From positions 543 through 64,542 of the forward strand of contig CAMAXP010000008.1 of assembly GCA_945862265.1 (NCBI GenBank): a stretch of 64,000 bases of DNA. Reading direction: 5' to 3'. The position numbers and the translations under genes are program-made. The notes beneath the pieces were generated by a model, which made no database searches, was not told where the DNA came from, and saw nothing but the letters and a program-made list of their open reading frames with translations. Positions within the stretch are counted from its first letter, which is position 1, and every line of letters begins with the position of its first letter. Source of the stretch: Bordetella parapertussis. GTDB taxonomy: Bacteria; Pseudomonadota; Gammaproteobacteria; Burkholderiales; SG8-39. This document shows, one piece after another, positions 37,718 to 60,020 of this stretch.

Positions 37718-40700
37718 TCAGTTCCCGCGTTCGGCGAGAAACTCCGCCAGCACCCGCGCCGTGTGGGATTGCGCCGGGGTCGCGGCCAGCGCCTCGGGTG
37801 AGGCCTGCGCCACCACCTTGCCCCCGGCATCGCCGCCTTCGGGGCCGAGGTCGATGATCCAGTCGGCTTCGGCCATGATGTCGAGGTTGTGCTCGATCAC
37901 CACGACGCTGTTGCCTGAATCGACAAGGCGATGCAGCACGTGGATCAGTTTTTCCACGTCGGCCATGTGCAGGCCGACCGTGGGCTCGTCGAGCACGTAG
38001 AGCGTGTGCGCGAGTTCACCCGCGCGGCCCGGGCGGGCGAGGGCGTTGCCGTTGGCGTCGATGCGCACCTTCGAAAGTTCGGTCACCAGCTTGATGCGCT
38101 GGGCCTCACCGCCGGAGAGCGTCGGGCTCTGCTGGCCGAGCGTGAGGTAGCCGAGGCCCACGTCCTGCATCAGGCGCAGCGCATGGTGGATCGAGGTGTG
38201 CGCCGCGAAGAACTCCACGCCCTCGTCGATGTTCATCGCAAGGATGTCGCCGATGGATTTGTCGCGCCACTTGACCGACAGCGTCTCGGCGTTGAAGCGC
38301 TGGCCGTTGCAGACGTCGCAAAGCACGCGCACATCCGGCAGGAACGACATCTCGATGCGTTGCACCCCCTGGCCTTCGCAGGCCTCGCAGCGGCCGCCTT
38401 TGGTGTTGAACGAGAAGCGGCTGGCGGTCCAGCCGCGCATGCGGGACTCGTTCGCCTCGGCAAAGATGCGGCGGATCGAGTCCCAGAAACCCACATAGGT
38501 CGCAGGGCACGAGCGCGGCGTCTTGCCGATCGGGGTCTGGTCGACCTCGAGCACGCGGCCCACGCCCTCGGCCCCCTTGAGGGTCTTGCAGCCCTTGAGC
38601 GGGACGTCGGATTTCGCCCGCCGCTCCGCCACCAGCTTGGCGAGGTTCGTGTGCAGCACGTCGCGCGCGAGCGTGGACTTGCCCGAGCCGGACACGCCCG
38701 TGACGACAGTCAGGCGGCCCAGCGGCACGCGCGCACTGACGTTCCTGAGGTTGTGCAGGGTGGCGCCGCCGATTTCGATCGACGGCGTGGACTTGGCGAC
38801 CGCGCGGCGCGGGTGGATCGGGTGGCGCAGCGGCGACTTGAGGAACCGTCCGGTGAGCGACTCGGGGTTGGCCATCAGGTCGTCAGCTGAGCCTTCGGCA
38901 ATCACGCGGCCGCCGAGGCGTCCGGCGCCGGGGCCGAGATCCAGGACATGGTGTGCGCGGCGGATCGTGTCCTCGTCGTGCTCCACCACCACCAGCGTGT
39001 TGCCCTTGGCCTCGAGCTTCTCCAGCACGTCGAGCAGGATCCTGTTGTCGCGCGGGTGCAGGCCGATGGTCGGTTCGTCGAGGATGTAGCACACGCCGCG
39101 CAGGTTTGAACCCAACTGCGCCGCAAGGCGAATGCGTTGCGCCTCGCCGCCCGAAAGCGTCGGCGCGGAGCGGTCGAGCGACAGGTAGCCGAGGCCGACC
39201 TCTTCGAGGAAGCCGAGGCGCGAGCGCAACTCGGCGAGCAGGTCGCGCGCGATCTCCTCGTCGCGGCCCGCGAGCTTCATGTCCTTCACGATTGCGCGGA
39301 TCTTGCCTACCGACAGCGCGGTGAAGTCGGCAATCGAACGGTCGTGGTAACGCACGGCGAGGGCCTCGGTGTTCAGGCGCTTGCCGTCGCAGGTGGGGCA
39401 GGCTTCCTCCACCTCCAGCCATTCGAGCCAGGAGTCGAGCACGTGGTCTTCGGTGCCGCTCTTCTCGCGCTCGGCGTCCCAGTCGATGCCGGTGAGCTTC
39501 AAGCCGGTGCCGTAGCAGGTGGCGCACCAGCCGTGCTTGGAGTTGAACGAGAAGAGGCGCGGGTCGAGCTCCGCGAAGCTGCGCGCGCACGAAGGGCAGG
39601 CGCGCTTGGTGGAGAAGACCTGCTGGTGCAGTTGCATCTCGACGAGCGGGGCCTTGGACTTGGACGCAGCCTTCACCAGCGCGTCGAGGTCCGACAGCAC
39701 GTGCACTACGCCCTTGCCGAACTCGAGCGCCTTGGCGAGTTCGCGCCTCAGCATCGCTTCGTTCTCGGCTGTGACCCGCAGGTCGGACACTGGCAGTTCC
39801 AGCGTGTGTTCCTTGAAGCGGTCGAGGCGCGGCCAGGCGGCGGTGGACATGAACTCGCCGTCGACGCGCAGGTGCGTGTAGCCCTTGCCGCGCGCCCACT
39901 TGGCGAGGTCGGTGTAGAAGCCTTTGCGGTTCATCACCAGCGGCGCGAGCAGGCCGATGCGCTGGCCCTTGTAGTCGCGCATTAGGCGGGCCACGATCGC
40001 GTCCTCGGTCTGCGGCTCGATCGGCACGTCGCAGTCGGGGCAGTACTGCGTGCCGAGCTTCACGTACATCAGCCGCAGGAAATGGTAGATCTCGGTGAGC
40101 GTGGCCACCGTGGACTTGCGCCCGCCGCGGCTGGTGCGCTGCTCGATCGCCACCGTGGGCGGGATGCCGAAGATCGCGTCCACGTCCGGCCGGGCCGCGG
40201 GCTGCACGAACTGGCGGGCGTAGGCGTTCAGCGATTCGAGATAGCGGCGCTGGCCCTCGGCAAAGATGATGTCGAACGCGAGCGTCGACTTGCCCGAGCC
40301 CGACACGCCGGTGACCACGGTGAACCGGCCGCGCGGGATCTCGACGTCGATGTTCTTGAGGTTGTGTTCACGGGCATTGTGAATGCTGATGTTGTTCGAC
40401 AGCAGCCGGGTCTGCAGCGGCATTTCGCGCAGGATCCCGGAGGTGGCCGGGTTGGTCAGCGCCTCTTCGTAAGCCTTGAGGGCCACGCCCGTGTGCGAGG
40501 CGGGGTTGGTCGCGATGTCGAGCGGCGTGCCGACCGCGACGATCATGCCGCCGGCTTCGCCGCCTTCGGGCCCGAGGTCGATGATCCAGTCGGAAGCCGA
40601 GATGACGTCTAGGTTGTGTTCGATCACCACCAGCGAGTGGCCGGCGCCGAGCAGCTGGCGGAACGCGCGCAGGAGCTTGGCCACGTCGTCGAAATGCAGG

Positions 40701-43387
40701 CCCGTGGTCGGTTCGTCGAACAGGAACAGCTTGCTCGAATGCGGCGTGTAGAGCGCACGCTGCGGCGGGTAGCGCTTGTCGCTGGTCTTGGCCGTCTCGG
40801 CCAAATGCCCGGCCAACTTGAGGCGCTGGGCTTCGCCGCCCGAGAGCGTGGGTACCGGCTGCCCGAGCCGCAGGTATTCGAGGCCGACATCGGCCAGCGG
40901 CTTCAGCACGCGCTGCACTTCGGCGTAGTCGCGGAAGAACTTGATCGCTTCCGACACCGTGAGTTCGAGCACGTCGGCGATCGACTTGTCGCGCACGATG
41001 ACTTCCAGCACCTCGCCGCGGAAGCGCTTGCCGTCGCAGTCCGGGCAGCGGAGGTAGACGTCGGAGAGGAACTGCATCTCCACGTGCTCGAAGCCGTTGC
41101 CGCCGCAGGTGGGGCAGCGGCCGTTGCCGGCGTTGAAGCTGAACGTGCCTGCCGTGTAGCCACGTTCCTTGGCGGTGTCCGATTTTGCGTAGATGTCGCG
41201 GATCGCGTCCCAGGCGCCGACGTAGCTGGCGGGGTTGGAGCGCGTGGTCTTGCCGATGGGCGACTGGTCGACCATGACCACCTCGGCCACGTGCTTGGCG
41301 CCACGCAATTCGCGGTGCTTGCCGGCCATTTCGGAAGGCTTGCCCTTGGACTTCAGCAGCGCTGCGTACAGGACGTCGTGGACGAGCGTGGACTTGCCCG
41401 ATCCCGAGACGCCGGTTACGCACACCAGCCGCTGCAGCGGGATCGTGACGTCGATGTTCTTGAGGTTGTGCTCTTCGGCGCCGAGGATCTCGAGGCTCGG
41501 CGCAGAGGGCAGCATGCGCGCGCGGCCTTCGGCCCAGGCCGCTTCGCCGGCGCGCTTGCGCCCGGAGAGGTACTCGGCGGTCAGCGTCTTGGATTGCCGC
41601 AGTTCGGTGGGCGGGCCGAAGAACACGATCTCGCCGCCGCGCTCGCCGGGGCCCGGGCCCATGTCCATGATCCGGTCGGCCTCGAACATGATCTGCGGGT
41701 CGTGCTCGACGACGACGAGCGAGTTGCCCGCGTCGCGCAGGCGCTTCATCACGTCGATGACGCGGCCCATGTCGCGCGGGTGCAGGCCGATGGAGGGCTC
41801 GTCCAGCACGAAGAGCGTATTGACGAGCGAGGTGCCCAGCGCCGTGGTCAGGTTGATGCGCTGGACCTCGCCCCCCGACAGCGTGCGCGACTGGCGATCC
41901 AGCGTCAGGTAGCCGAGGCCCACGGCATTGAGGAAGCGCAGCCGCGAGCGGATCTCGGTGACGAGCAGGTCTGTGGCCTCATCGAGCGGCGCGGGCAGCT
42001 GCAGCGTCTCCACAAAATCGCGGAGCGCGTCGATGGGCATCAGCATCAGGTCGTGGATCGACCTCTTGCCGGGCTCGAGCTTGTAGAGCAGGGCGTCGGG
42101 CTTGAGGCGCGTGCCGTTGCAGGCCGGGCAGGGCGTGTACGCGCGGTACTTCGAGAGCAGCACGCGGATGTGCATCTTGTACGCCTTGCTCTCCAGCCAG
42201 TGGAAGAAGCGCCGCACCCCGTACCAGATGCCGGGCCAGGAGGTCTTCCAGTCCACCCACTCAGGCTCGCCTTCGAGCACCCAGTGGCGGTGCTCGTCCT
42301 TCATCTCGCGCCAGGGGGTGTCGAGAGGGATGCCGCGCTTCTTCGCGTACTTCTCGATGTCGGTCTGGCATTCCTTGAAGCTCGGCGTCTGCCACGGGCG
42401 GATCGCGCCGTCGCGCAGGCTCTTGGTCTCGTCCGGGACGATCAGGCCGAAGTCGATGCCGATCACGCGGCCAAAGCCGCGGCAGGTGTCGCAGGCGCCG
42501 AGCGGCGAGTTGAAGGAGAACAGGCTCGGCACCGGCTCGCTGTAGTGGAAGTCGCAGTCCGGGCAGTGCAGGTCCGAGGAGTAGCGCCAGACTAAATCGG
42601 GGTCAGAGTCGATTTTCGTTGCGGTGGCGGCGCTTTCTGCAGTCGAGTCCGAAATCCGACTCTGCCCCCGATTTAGTTCGTCGTCCAATACAACGTATAC
42701 GCTGACCTTGCCTTGGCCCACGCGCAGCGCGGATTCCAGCGCCTCGCTGACGCGGGCCTTCTCGGCGTTGCCCATGCGCAGGCGGTCCTGCACTACTTCC
42801 AGCACGGTGCTGGAGCGCGCGTGGATGCGGGTGTAGCCCTGGTGCTCCAGCATCTGCATGACTTCGGCTTCGCTGAAGTTCTTGGGCACGGTGATCGGGA
42901 AGGTGATCACGAGGCGCGGGTCGTTCGCCGCGGCGGCGCGCTTGCACAGGTCCGCGTAGATCGCCTCGGGCGAGTCGCGCTTCACCGGCCGGCCGCAGCC
43001 GCGGCAGTAGAGCTGCGAGGCCCGTGCGAAGAGCAGCTTGATGTGGTCGTTCAGCTCCGTCATCGTGCCTACGGTGGAGCGCGAGGTGCGGACCTGGTTG
43101 GTCTGGTCGATCGCAATCGCGGGCGGGATGCCGTCGATGCGGTCCACCTGCGGCTTGTCCATGCGGTCGAGGAACTGCCGCGCGTACGGCGAGAAGGTCT
43201 CGACGTAGCGGCGCTGCCCCTCGGCGTAGAGGGTATCGAAGACGAGGGAGGACTTGCCCGAGCCCGAGACGCCGGTGACGACGACCAGTTCCCCGGTCGG
43301 GATCGTGACAGTCAGGTTCTTGAGGTTGTTCTGCCGGGCGCCGTGGATGACGATGGCGTTGGCGGGAGGCGATTGCGGCATTGCCAC
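37718..43387 (-). CDS. uvrA: Tandem-duplicated excinuclease ABC subunit A (UvrA-UvrA fusion, 1889 aa)
   Basis: Two complete UvrA-like units (aa ~1-950 and ~960-1889). Each has two ABC modules (four GVSGSGKS Walker A motifs, four LSGGE signatures) and Cys4 zinc modules. Confidence 0.9.
42592..42676. repeat. Palindromic MITE/REP-like element inserted in frame in uvrA
   Basis: The termini CTAAATCGGGGTCAGAGTCGATTT and AAATCCGACTCTGCCCCCGATTTAG are inverted repeats with 2 differences. The element is translated as [28 protein letters not shown]. Its termini recur at 58982..59073. Confidence 0.6.
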
Positions 43388-57119: not shown

Positions 57120-57166
57120 GGGCGCCAACCTGAGATAATCGGGTTTTACCTCCGCAGGGGCAGTCC

Positions 57167-58834
<1,668 letters not shown>

Positions 58835-58920: not shown

Positions 58921-58947
58921 CTTGAGGTCGCAATTTGCGACCTCAAG
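58921..58947 (+). terminator. Perfect hairpin downstream of ettA (possible terminator; no T-run)
   Basis: CTTGAGGTCGCAA-T-TTGCGACCTCAAG, with 13-nt complementary arms. Confidence 0.35.
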
Positions 58948-58981
58948 ATTGCAAGCCCTTGATTGGTAAGCTGGGATTAAT

Positions 58982-59073
58982 GGGGTCAGAGTCGACTTAT
59001 TCGACCCCGACCCCCGAGTACCGCTCAGCCGCGCTTCTTGCCTTCCAGTGCAAGGAAAGTCGACTCTGACCCC
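58982..59073. repeat. Second copy of the MITE/REP-like element (intergenic)
   Basis: Perfect 17-bp terminal inverted repeats GGGGTCAGAGTCGACTT and AAGTCGACTCTGACCCC. The same terminal motif (AATCGGGGTCAGAGTCGA) occurs in the uvrA insertion. The internal sequence differs. Confidence 0.55.
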
Positions 59074-59144
59074 GATTTTCAGAATCCAACTCAACGACCA
59101 GTCGGTGTTAGATTGCGGGCAAAGAAGACCCAGGGGAGACAAGG

Positions 59145-60020
59145 ATGCAGCAGGCCGTCCTGATGATGGTGCTCGCGACCATGGTGTACACCGTGTCGCT
59201 CGACCTGCGCGTCGCCGACTTCCGCTACGTCGCCACGCACCCGGTCGCGGTGTGCGTCGGGCTGGTGTCGCAGTTCGTGCTGCTGCCGGGGGCGACGCTG
59301 CTCGCCACGCTGGTGCTCGAGCTGCCGCCCGCCACAGAGGCGGCCATGATGCTGGTGGCGGCCTGCCCGGGCGGGGCGCTGTCCAACGTGATCACGCACC
59401 TCGGGCGCGGCAACCTCGCTCTGTCGCTGTCCATCTCCGCCGTGAGCAACGTCCTCGCGTTGCTCCTGACGCCGCTGAACTTCACGCTGATGATCGCTGC
59501 CAACCCGGAGACGGCCGCATGGGCGCGTTCGATCTCGGTGGACCCGGCCGGCCTCGTGCAGAGCCTGGTTCTTCTGCTCGCGTTGCCGATGACGGCTGCG
59601 ATGCTGACCACGCGCAACATCCCGGGCTTCGCGCTTCGCATCCGGGTGCCTCTGGCCCGCTTTGCCGGCTTCGCCCTGATCGCCTTCATCGTGCTCGCCG
59701 TCGCGGCCCAGTGGAAAGTGTTCCTGGTCGAAGTCACGCGCACGCTGCCGCTGGTGGTGGTCCAGAACGCCCTGGGCCTCGGGCTAGGCTACGGGGCTTC
59801 GGTCCTCGCGAAGATCGCCGTGGCCGACCGGCGCGCGGTGATCGTCGAGAGCGGCATGCAGAACTCCGGCCTCGCTCTGGGTATCATTGCTTCGCAGTTC
59901 AGCTCGGACCTCGCCATGGTGGCGGTGGCGGGCCTGTGGGGCATCTGGCACATCGTGTCTGGCGGGGCGCTGGCCATGCTGTGGCGGCGCCTCGACAAGG
60001 GGGAGCCTGCAAATGCTTGA
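59145..60020 (+). CDS. Bile acid:sodium symporter (BASS/SBF) family transporter
   Basis: 291-aa polytopic protein with CPGGALSNVITHL and ESGMQNSGLALGI motifs. Confidence 0.8.
   Translation: MQQAVLMMVLATMVYTVSLDLRVADFRYVATHPVAVCVGLVSQFVLLPGATLLATLVLELPPATEAAMMLVAACPGGALSNVITHLGRGNLALSLSISAVSNVLALLLTPLNFTLMIAANPETAAWARSISVDPAGLVQSLVLLLALPMTAAMLTTRNIPGFALRIRVPLARFAGFALIAFIVLAVAAQWKVFLVEVTRTLPLVVVQNALGLGLGYGASVLAKIAVADRRAVIVESGMQNSGLALGIIASQFSSDLAMVAVAGLWGIWHIVSGGALAMLWRRLDKGEPANA

Follow-up and report, generated by a model that had tools for sequence, protein, structure and literature searches.

We report that a 64,000-nucleotide stretch of Bordetella parapertussis DNA (NCBI GenBank assembly GCA_945862265.1, contig CAMAXP010000008.1, positions 543 to 64,542 of the forward strand; hereafter the window) carries a hairpin-forming repeat of 84 nucleotides inside the coding sequence of a double-length uvrA gene, where it is read in frame as 28 amino acid (aa) residues. 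The element is most likely a head-to-head dimer of the unit AAATCGGGGTCAGAGTCGAATTT, resembling a REPIN (a doublet of repetitive extragenic palindromic, or REP, sequences that forms a hairpin), and its family would be mobilised in trans by an HUH/Y1 (IS200-type) transposase akin to the REP-associated tyrosine transposases (RAYTs). The arrangement is that of the "TIRtrons", RAYT-like genes sitting between inverted repeats without a GTAG tag, whose transposases were termed "TIRYTs" by Di Nocera, De Gregorio & Rocco (2013, BMC Genomics 14:522; PMC3733652). The host gene and the parts of the element are located as follows.

37718 to 43387, minus strand: host gene for a double-length UvrA of 1889 aa, tandem-duplicated with two complete UvrA units, intact.
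42593 to 42676, minus strand: in-frame insertion of 84 nucleotides, 28 codons (aa 238-265), a head-to-head dimer of the repeat unit with a spacer.
42591 to 42618, plus strand: arm 1, an exact match to the family consensus AAATCGGGGTCAGAGTCGA.
42619 to 42649, no strand assigned: spacer of 31 nucleotides, 64.5% G+C.
42650 to 42677, minus strand: arm 2, differing from the consensus by two substitutions in the core (GGGGGCAGAGTCGG).

The host open reading frame (ORF) matches the UvrA equivalog model NF001503 of NCBIfam with 2057 bits and TIGR00630 with 2010 bits, has no internal stop codon, and aligns with the UvrA entries of PDB at E-values down to 1e-164. Its Pfam domains are ABC_tran, UvrA_inter (twice) and UvrA_DNA-bind, and the protein shows the ABC ATPase pair, zinc modules and UvrA-specific domains of a UvrA, here in two tandem units. 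The two arms, ACTAAATCGGGGTCAGAGTCGATTTTCG and CGAAATCCGACTCTGCCCCCGATTTAGT, are 28 nucleotides each in length, complementary at 25 of 28 positions (89%) and 31 nucleotides apart, and an inverted-repeat scan of the gene returned 42591-42677 as the sole strong inverted repeat across the 5.7-kb uvrA. An earlier note on this DNA had described an element bounded by inverted repeats and translated in frame within uvrA, and both descriptions hold. RNA folding of the coding strand gave -47.7 kcal/mol (z = -4.2), a value matched by 0 of 200 shuffles, and DNA folding of the plus strand of the element gave -25.9 kcal/mol (z = -4.95). The residues VYVVLDDE directly precede the 28 insert residues and no stop occurs in the frame used; as read off the consensus, five of the six reading frames of the unit are open. 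The arms have 46-54% G+C compared with 67% for the gene. The A+T-rich flanks claimed by the same note were found on one side only, with 45-47% G+C in the 20-30 nucleotides at the higher-coordinate side and 65-67% at the other. Five matches to the core GGGGTCAGAGTCGA were found in the window with up to 2 mismatches, a number reached by 0 of 100 shuffles (mean 0.55). Because an Rfam scan of 42400-42900 (E <= 10) returned two chance-level matches only, the element corresponds to no known RNA family.

Comparison with 118 orthologues of the first-unit fragment indicates that the 84-nucleotide segment is an insertion. The loop, taken as the segment between GQGKVNV and WR(F/Y)SSDLHC, varies from 6 to 54 aa among the orthologues and measures 36 aa in the window protein, and in many orthologues it is empty, consisting of a turn of 6-8 aa such as YVEDQP or HAEEDTV. 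Upon alignment to the solved UvrA structure 2R6F, residues 239-270 of the query remained unmatched, the match ending at VIGEGEL and restarting at CxxC, and the insert lies in the first UvrA unit just ahead of the second CxxC of zinc module 1. An AlphaFold2 model covering residues 1-600 (mean predicted local distance difference test score, pLDDT, of only 67) showed pLDDT values of 93-98 at residues ~120-230, which form the UvrB-binding-type domain, ~53 over the insert (241-260) and 83-93 after it. The gap against 2R6F and the drop in pLDDT therefore place the insert, as modelled, in the beta-hairpin turn that ends the UvrB-binding-type domain of the first unit, and the 28 residues are probably a flexible, disordered surface loop. 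The loop DNA is strongly palindromic (z <= -2.5) in 9 of 70 orthologue loci and belongs to different repeat families. In one relative with 83% aa identity (L079; L-numbered labels denote loci from other genomes), a 12-aa loop is encoded by CGACTCTGGCCCGACTT, a sequence similar to that of the right arm in the window; it may, as a suggestion only, represent a half-deleted remnant. Separately, and judged by eye only, loop peptides resembling translations of other repeats were seen in orthologues P0081, P0093, P0076, P0030, P0002 and P0007; loop peptides beginning with HPREGGDPADLDSR or ending in PGMTE are similar to CGTC-1 peptides that Di Nocera et al. list, and the loop peptides LTPALSPQAGRGS and VRAEPVEAR to translations of other known repeats.

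The dispersal of the repeat was examined by an exact search of species-representative genomes with the 19-mer AAATCGGGGTCAGAGTCGA, the source genome not being among the matched loci. The 19-mer occurred at 78 loci in other genomes, mostly metagenome-assembled genomes (MAGs) of Burkholderiales plus Rhodanobacter, Rudaea and Dokdonella, and the family is thus dispersed in Burkholderiales and Xanthomonadales genomes as single units, head-to-head dimers and clusters. Together with the empty loops of the orthologues, this bears out the proposal of the earlier note that the segment is a mobile repeat rather than native coding sequence. Upon alignment of 144 arms, conservation was confined to ~24 nucleotides (rAAATCGGGGTCAGAGTCGAaTTt; the unit proper is 23 nucleotides in length), with random sequence on both flanks. 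An inverted partner was present within 150 nucleotides for ~56% of the arms (spacers of 5-150 nucleotides, differing in sequence and length among copies), while ~38% were truly single; strict matching gave 110 elements, 38 of them dimers and 72 singles. In a test combining ORFs with G+C content at third codon positions, 51 of 99 copies were closed in all frames and 39 were open but non-coding-like, and the coding-like family-A copies sampled (family A being that of the window) numbered nine. With a folding energy of -2.0 kcal/mol (z = -0.97), the consensus unit makes no significant stem-loop of its own; only a TCGATTT variant of the unit folds significantly (z = -3.8). Position-by-position counts over the 144 arms showed neither a GTAG nor a CGTC tag at the unit ends.

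Some further occurrences of the repeat were noted on the way. At L016 (4885-5106), a variant of family A, AAATTGGGGTCAGAGTCGATTT, is present three times in tandem with a period of ~107 nucleotides and near-identical spacers; this clustered form of the repeat adjoins a region syntenic with 57129-58824 of the window. The exact 19-mer was also present at L001, L019, L064 and L072, in MAGs labelled Gemmatimonadaceae, Thermodesulfobacteriota and Nitrospinota, which could reflect either horizontal spread of a repeat/transposase pair or bin contamination. A full-text literature search for the core sequence returned one unrelated primer-like match.

To what enzyme the family is linked is indicated by its neighbourhood. 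Clustering of all ORFs in the family loci revealed one recurrent neighbour, a protein of ~230 aa encoded at 8-9 loci, which scored 48.5 and 53.2 bits against Pfam Y1_Tnp (cut-off 23) and shows an HUH motif (HVHLL) as well as the Y..NP motif of the catalytic tyrosine; by these sequence features it is classified as an IS200-like HUH/Y1 transposase. Inverted units lie 32-130 nucleotides outside this gene in seven related loci, establishing the association of the repeat family with the transposase gene. A target-site duplication was found in 0 of 45 dimers at any tested end offset, and 40-43 of the 45 lacked a direct repeat of at least 2 nucleotides at each offset. Elements of this kind are thought to move as single-stranded hairpins without target-site duplication. 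REP and REPIN-RAYT systems have reportedly been treated by Nunvar (2010), by Bertels and Rainey (2011) and by Ton-Hoang (2012). The lack of a duplication and the presence of a Y1 gene flanked by the same units therefore argue for a REPIN-like dimer of a RAYT/TIRYT-linked repeat. In the scheme we propose, a RAYT/TIRYT-type Y1 transposase would have acted in trans on a hairpin repeat without leaving a duplication, and one copy would have inserted among the codons of the beta-hairpin turn with which the first UvrA unit's UvrB-binding-type domain ends. There the insert may have persisted by virtue of its length of 84 nucleotides (3 x 28), its stop-free frame, its hydrophilic peptide and the permissive loop, as such a combination leaves the gene open and the repeat translated. 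By this scheme, the insertion would be neutral or nearly so, and the same UvrA loops would recur as hosts through their tolerance of insertions.

Among known systems, the TIRtrons offer the closest match. They share with the present family an HUH/Y1 gene between inverted GTAG-less repeats, and some of their repeats contain the motif GGGGWSAS, to which the core GGGGTCAG within our unit conforms; like the present units, they form moderately abundant families with single, dimeric and clustered copies (PMC3733652). By contrast, the intragenic repeats catalogued in that work are of the GTAG and CGTC types rather than the TIRtron type, and the unit AAATCGGGGTCAGAGTCGAATTT was not found in its text or in the supplements searched. 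The REPIN-RAYT systems (Bertels et al. 2017, PMC5581495) likewise consist of inverted doublets making long hairpins, with repeats flanking a single-copy Y1 gene, no target duplication and a mostly extragenic location. However, the unit described here differs from REPs and REPINs in the strict sense in that it has no GTAG or CGTC tetranucleotide and is not a self-complementary stem-loop of 20-40 nucleotides. The absence of GTAG and of a self-fold together with the presence of GGGGWSAS thus makes the TIRtron/TIRYT repeats a better fit than a classical MITE (a miniature transposable element with inverted repeats), as judged on arrangement, motif and dispersal. Bacterial MITEs such as Correia/NEMIS, RUP, ERIC and Nezha do resemble the element in size, terminal inverted repeats, hairpin transcripts and occasional in-frame insertions, but they derive from insertion sequences (ISs) with DDE-type transposases and make target duplications, neither of which holds here. 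The palindromic elements of Rickettsia (Ogata et al. 2000, via PMC3733652) are similarly inserted in frame into functional genes and translated, typically at permissive surface positions. In contrast to the present unit, to which they bear no sequence relationship, they are CGTC-tagged and A+T-rich, have no dedicated transposase known and reside in reduced intracellular genomes. The earlier note had called in-frame palindromic repeats established for Rickettsia but rarely reported in Burkholderiales; they are not confined to Rickettsia, given that intragenic REPs have been catalogued in many Proteobacteria, including the betaproteobacterium Thauera, and in uvrA itself (PMC3733652).

In-frame colonisation of uvrA, duplicated uvrA included, is in fact already on record. 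In the gene family of the window, repeats were found at four positions: site 1, the loop occupied in the window (UvrB-binding-type domain tip); site 2, the stretch leading up to Walker B in unit 1's second ATPase domain; site 3, a loop near aa 437; and the linker joining the two units. The recorded cases are in-frame dimers encoding 20-30 aa, as here, yet they belong to the GTAG super-family and their hosts are Gammaproteobacteria and Verrucomicrobia (PMC3733652, Fig. 7 and Additional file 3). Tgr7_1444 of Thioalkalivibrio (excinuclease A), which is also 1889 aa in length, carries dimers at 865-887 and 1761-1783, the former corresponding to site 2 by residue number only. Of two excinuclease A proteins of Opitutus, Oter_3168 (999 aa) carries dimers at 224-239 and 440-462, corresponding to sites 1 and 3 by residue number only, and Oter_2709 (1995 aa) carries a lone REP at 638-644 together with a dimer at 1601-1623. 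The same study found intragenic repeats to be biased toward repair genes, and its authors speculated on mutator phenotypes.

Relatives of the window gene extend this pattern to several repeat families. At site 1, family A also occurs in L085/L004 (ENRGQSRITEAKSDSDPDF) with a shorter spacer and as a variant in L107, L080 and L268 carry an E type (GGGGCCAGGCTCAAATTT), L159 and L160 a B/C type (AAATCRGGGACAGACCAC), and L104, L114, L116, L120 and L123 other repeat types. At site 2, L268 and L224 hold perfect B/C dimers and L004 a solitary A unit, and the inter-unit linker is occupied in L042. Family B/C is dispersed in at least 120 loci and also adjoins Y1 transposase genes. Since the E-family pattern is short and ~69 chance matches are expected, single matches were ignored and only genomes with several matches or dimers were counted; by this measure, several contigs of the L080 genome contain family E, as do several of another betaproteobacterial MAG, CANKMT01. 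The closest relative of the window gene, with 87% aa identity, is the uvrA of L268 (CAZREB010000004.1, 1732-7449, minus strand), and it carries three repeat inserts.

6676 to 6746 of L268, gene on the minus strand: site 1, E-type dimer.
6067 to 6084 of L268, gene on the minus strand: loop near aa 437, a 25-aa insert containing the E type.
4743 to 4794 of L268, gene on the minus strand: site 2, perfect B/C-type dimer.

Several observations weigh against the scheme of Y1-mediated insertion followed by neutral persistence. The ~230-aa protein scored 77.9 bits against the NCBIfam model of the REP-associated tyrosine transposase, just under the cut-off of 80, and no transposase gene of this type was found in the 64-kb window (best tblastn E = 0.82). 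We know of no experiment in which transposition of this repeat type has been shown. Four of the nine coding-like family-A copies reside in this one uvrA gene family, far above its share of the genome, and tolerance alone may therefore not explain the recurrence. In addition, the presence of an E-type dimer in L268 where the 87% identical window gene has an A-type dimer is not predicted by a single insertion with neutral decay; this difference may have arisen by two insertions or by a replacement, and a shared ancestral insertion was considered for the two dimers, with spacer similarity that was only marginal.

One alternative is an active landing pad, in which a resident hairpin or local GAA/AAA-rich sequence draws repeats, or the arms are converted to the currently active family. 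This reading is possible but unlikely, albeit the least unlikely of the alternatives. The A-type dimer of the window and the E-type dimer of L268 share their position and almost agree in total length, there is a marginal similarity between their spacers (p = 0.03), and REPs are known to cluster and to serve as insertion targets (background in PMC3733652). However, this spacer similarity is weak, lineages vary by a few nucleotides in their junctions, and unrelated GTAG REPs occupy the same loops, by residue number, in Opitutus and Thioalkalivibrio, where transposases and local DNA differ. Judged by residue number, sites 1, 2 and 3 coincide with those of Thioalkalivibrio and Opitutus, which favours structural tolerance over sequence targeting. 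A wider form of the idea seems to us somewhat less probable again: a few specific loops of the duplicated UvrA (the UvrB-binding-type domain tip, the pre-Walker B linker in the second ATPase domain, the aa 437 loop and the inter-unit linker) would be recurrent landing pads for Y1-moved hairpins, where one family takes the place of another at orthologous positions, with targeted insertion or conversion of resident hairpins and perhaps a functional link to nucleotide excision repair genes beyond mere tolerance.

Alternatively, the hairpin could be kept for a function, either as an RNA or DNA structure modulating uvrA expression or as a loop altering UvrA activity, a possible minority reading that we consider improbable. 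Palindromic inserts of many families do occur in the same loop in many lineages, this gene is enriched in coding-sequence repeats, the hairpin retains 89% complementarity, and the literature reports a repair-gene bias (PMC3733652). By contrast, many orthologues have empty or short loops, several of the short ones looking like decayed remnants as expected of neutral DNA, the sequence, length and peptide of the insert are not conserved across lineages, and the closest relatives differ in repeat family; the low-confidence prediction of the peptide further suggests disorder. A DNA-uptake sequence was also considered for the repair-gene bias and rejected, as the repeat has only a few copies per Mb, its unit is 23 nucleotides in length and it is tied to a transposase gene.

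The remaining two explanations are effectively excluded. The earlier note had called the element MITE-like. A classical MITE would derive by deletion from a DDE-transposase IS, move by cut-and-paste and leave a target-site duplication, and it would share the terminal inverted repeats, small size (84 nucleotides) and multiple copies of the element; it is nonetheless highly improbable, given that direct repeats were absent from the 45 dimers at the tested end offsets, that a Y1/HUH (IS200-like) transposase is the product of the one gene that recurs between the units, and that ~38% of the units are single, which is unusual for MITEs. That the segment is native lineage-specific coding sequence, with coincidental palindromy and second copy or with intergenic copies derived from the gene, has next to no probability despite the intact frame and a synonymous CGA to CGG change in one arm, as the unit occurs at 78 loci of other genomes (mostly intergenic) and flanks transposase genes, orthologues have empty loops, and the arms differ in G+C from the gene around them.

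Elsewhere in the window, the other family copy and the site 2 linker are located as follows.

58977 to 59078, no strand assigned: intergenic family copy containing the other three core matches, between the end of the upstream plus-strand ORF (58834 or 58896) and an ATG at 59145.
58982 to 58995, plus strand, and 59060 to 59073, minus strand: outer inverted units of this copy, core matches.
59001 to 59014, minus strand: inner degenerate unit of this copy, core match.
40733 to 40786, minus strand: site 2 linker, 18 residues in unit 1 that join the ABC signature of the second ATPase domain to its Walker B.

The outer units confirm the second copy that the earlier note had placed at 58982-59073. 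Between the preceding ORF and this copy, just upstream of the latter, 58921-58947 forms a perfect stem of 12 bp closed by a 3-nucleotide loop (CTTGAGGTCGCA ATT TGCGACCTCAAG), with no T-run. The site 2 linker is ~12 aa longer than in canonical UvrA and corresponds in position and length to those of L224 and L268. Its sequence was compared with B/C repeats as a candidate decayed B/C dimer; the similarity was not significant (p = 0.06-0.08), no B/C-type core exists in the window, and we do not make this claim. Families B/C and E are both absent from the 64-kb window at up to 3 mismatches. The equivalent linker of the second UvrA unit (approximately 38002-38062, minus strand) is also much longer than in canonical UvrA and coincides by residue number with the second REP dimer site of Tgr7_1444 (1761-1783); no inverted repeat was detected at this linker.

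For annotation, these results mean that the 28 residues should be regarded as repeat-derived rather than as a lineage-specific feature of UvrA, and the element as a Y1-transposase-linked hairpin rather than a MITE. The window provides a clear Burkholderiales example of the little-studied concentration of intragenic REP-type repeats in uvrA and other repair genes. The repeated hits on the same UvrA loops by different families are the part most worth following: if the recurrence reflects targeting rather than tolerance, UvrA loops would represent a natural system for insertion-site choice by RAYT-type enzymes.

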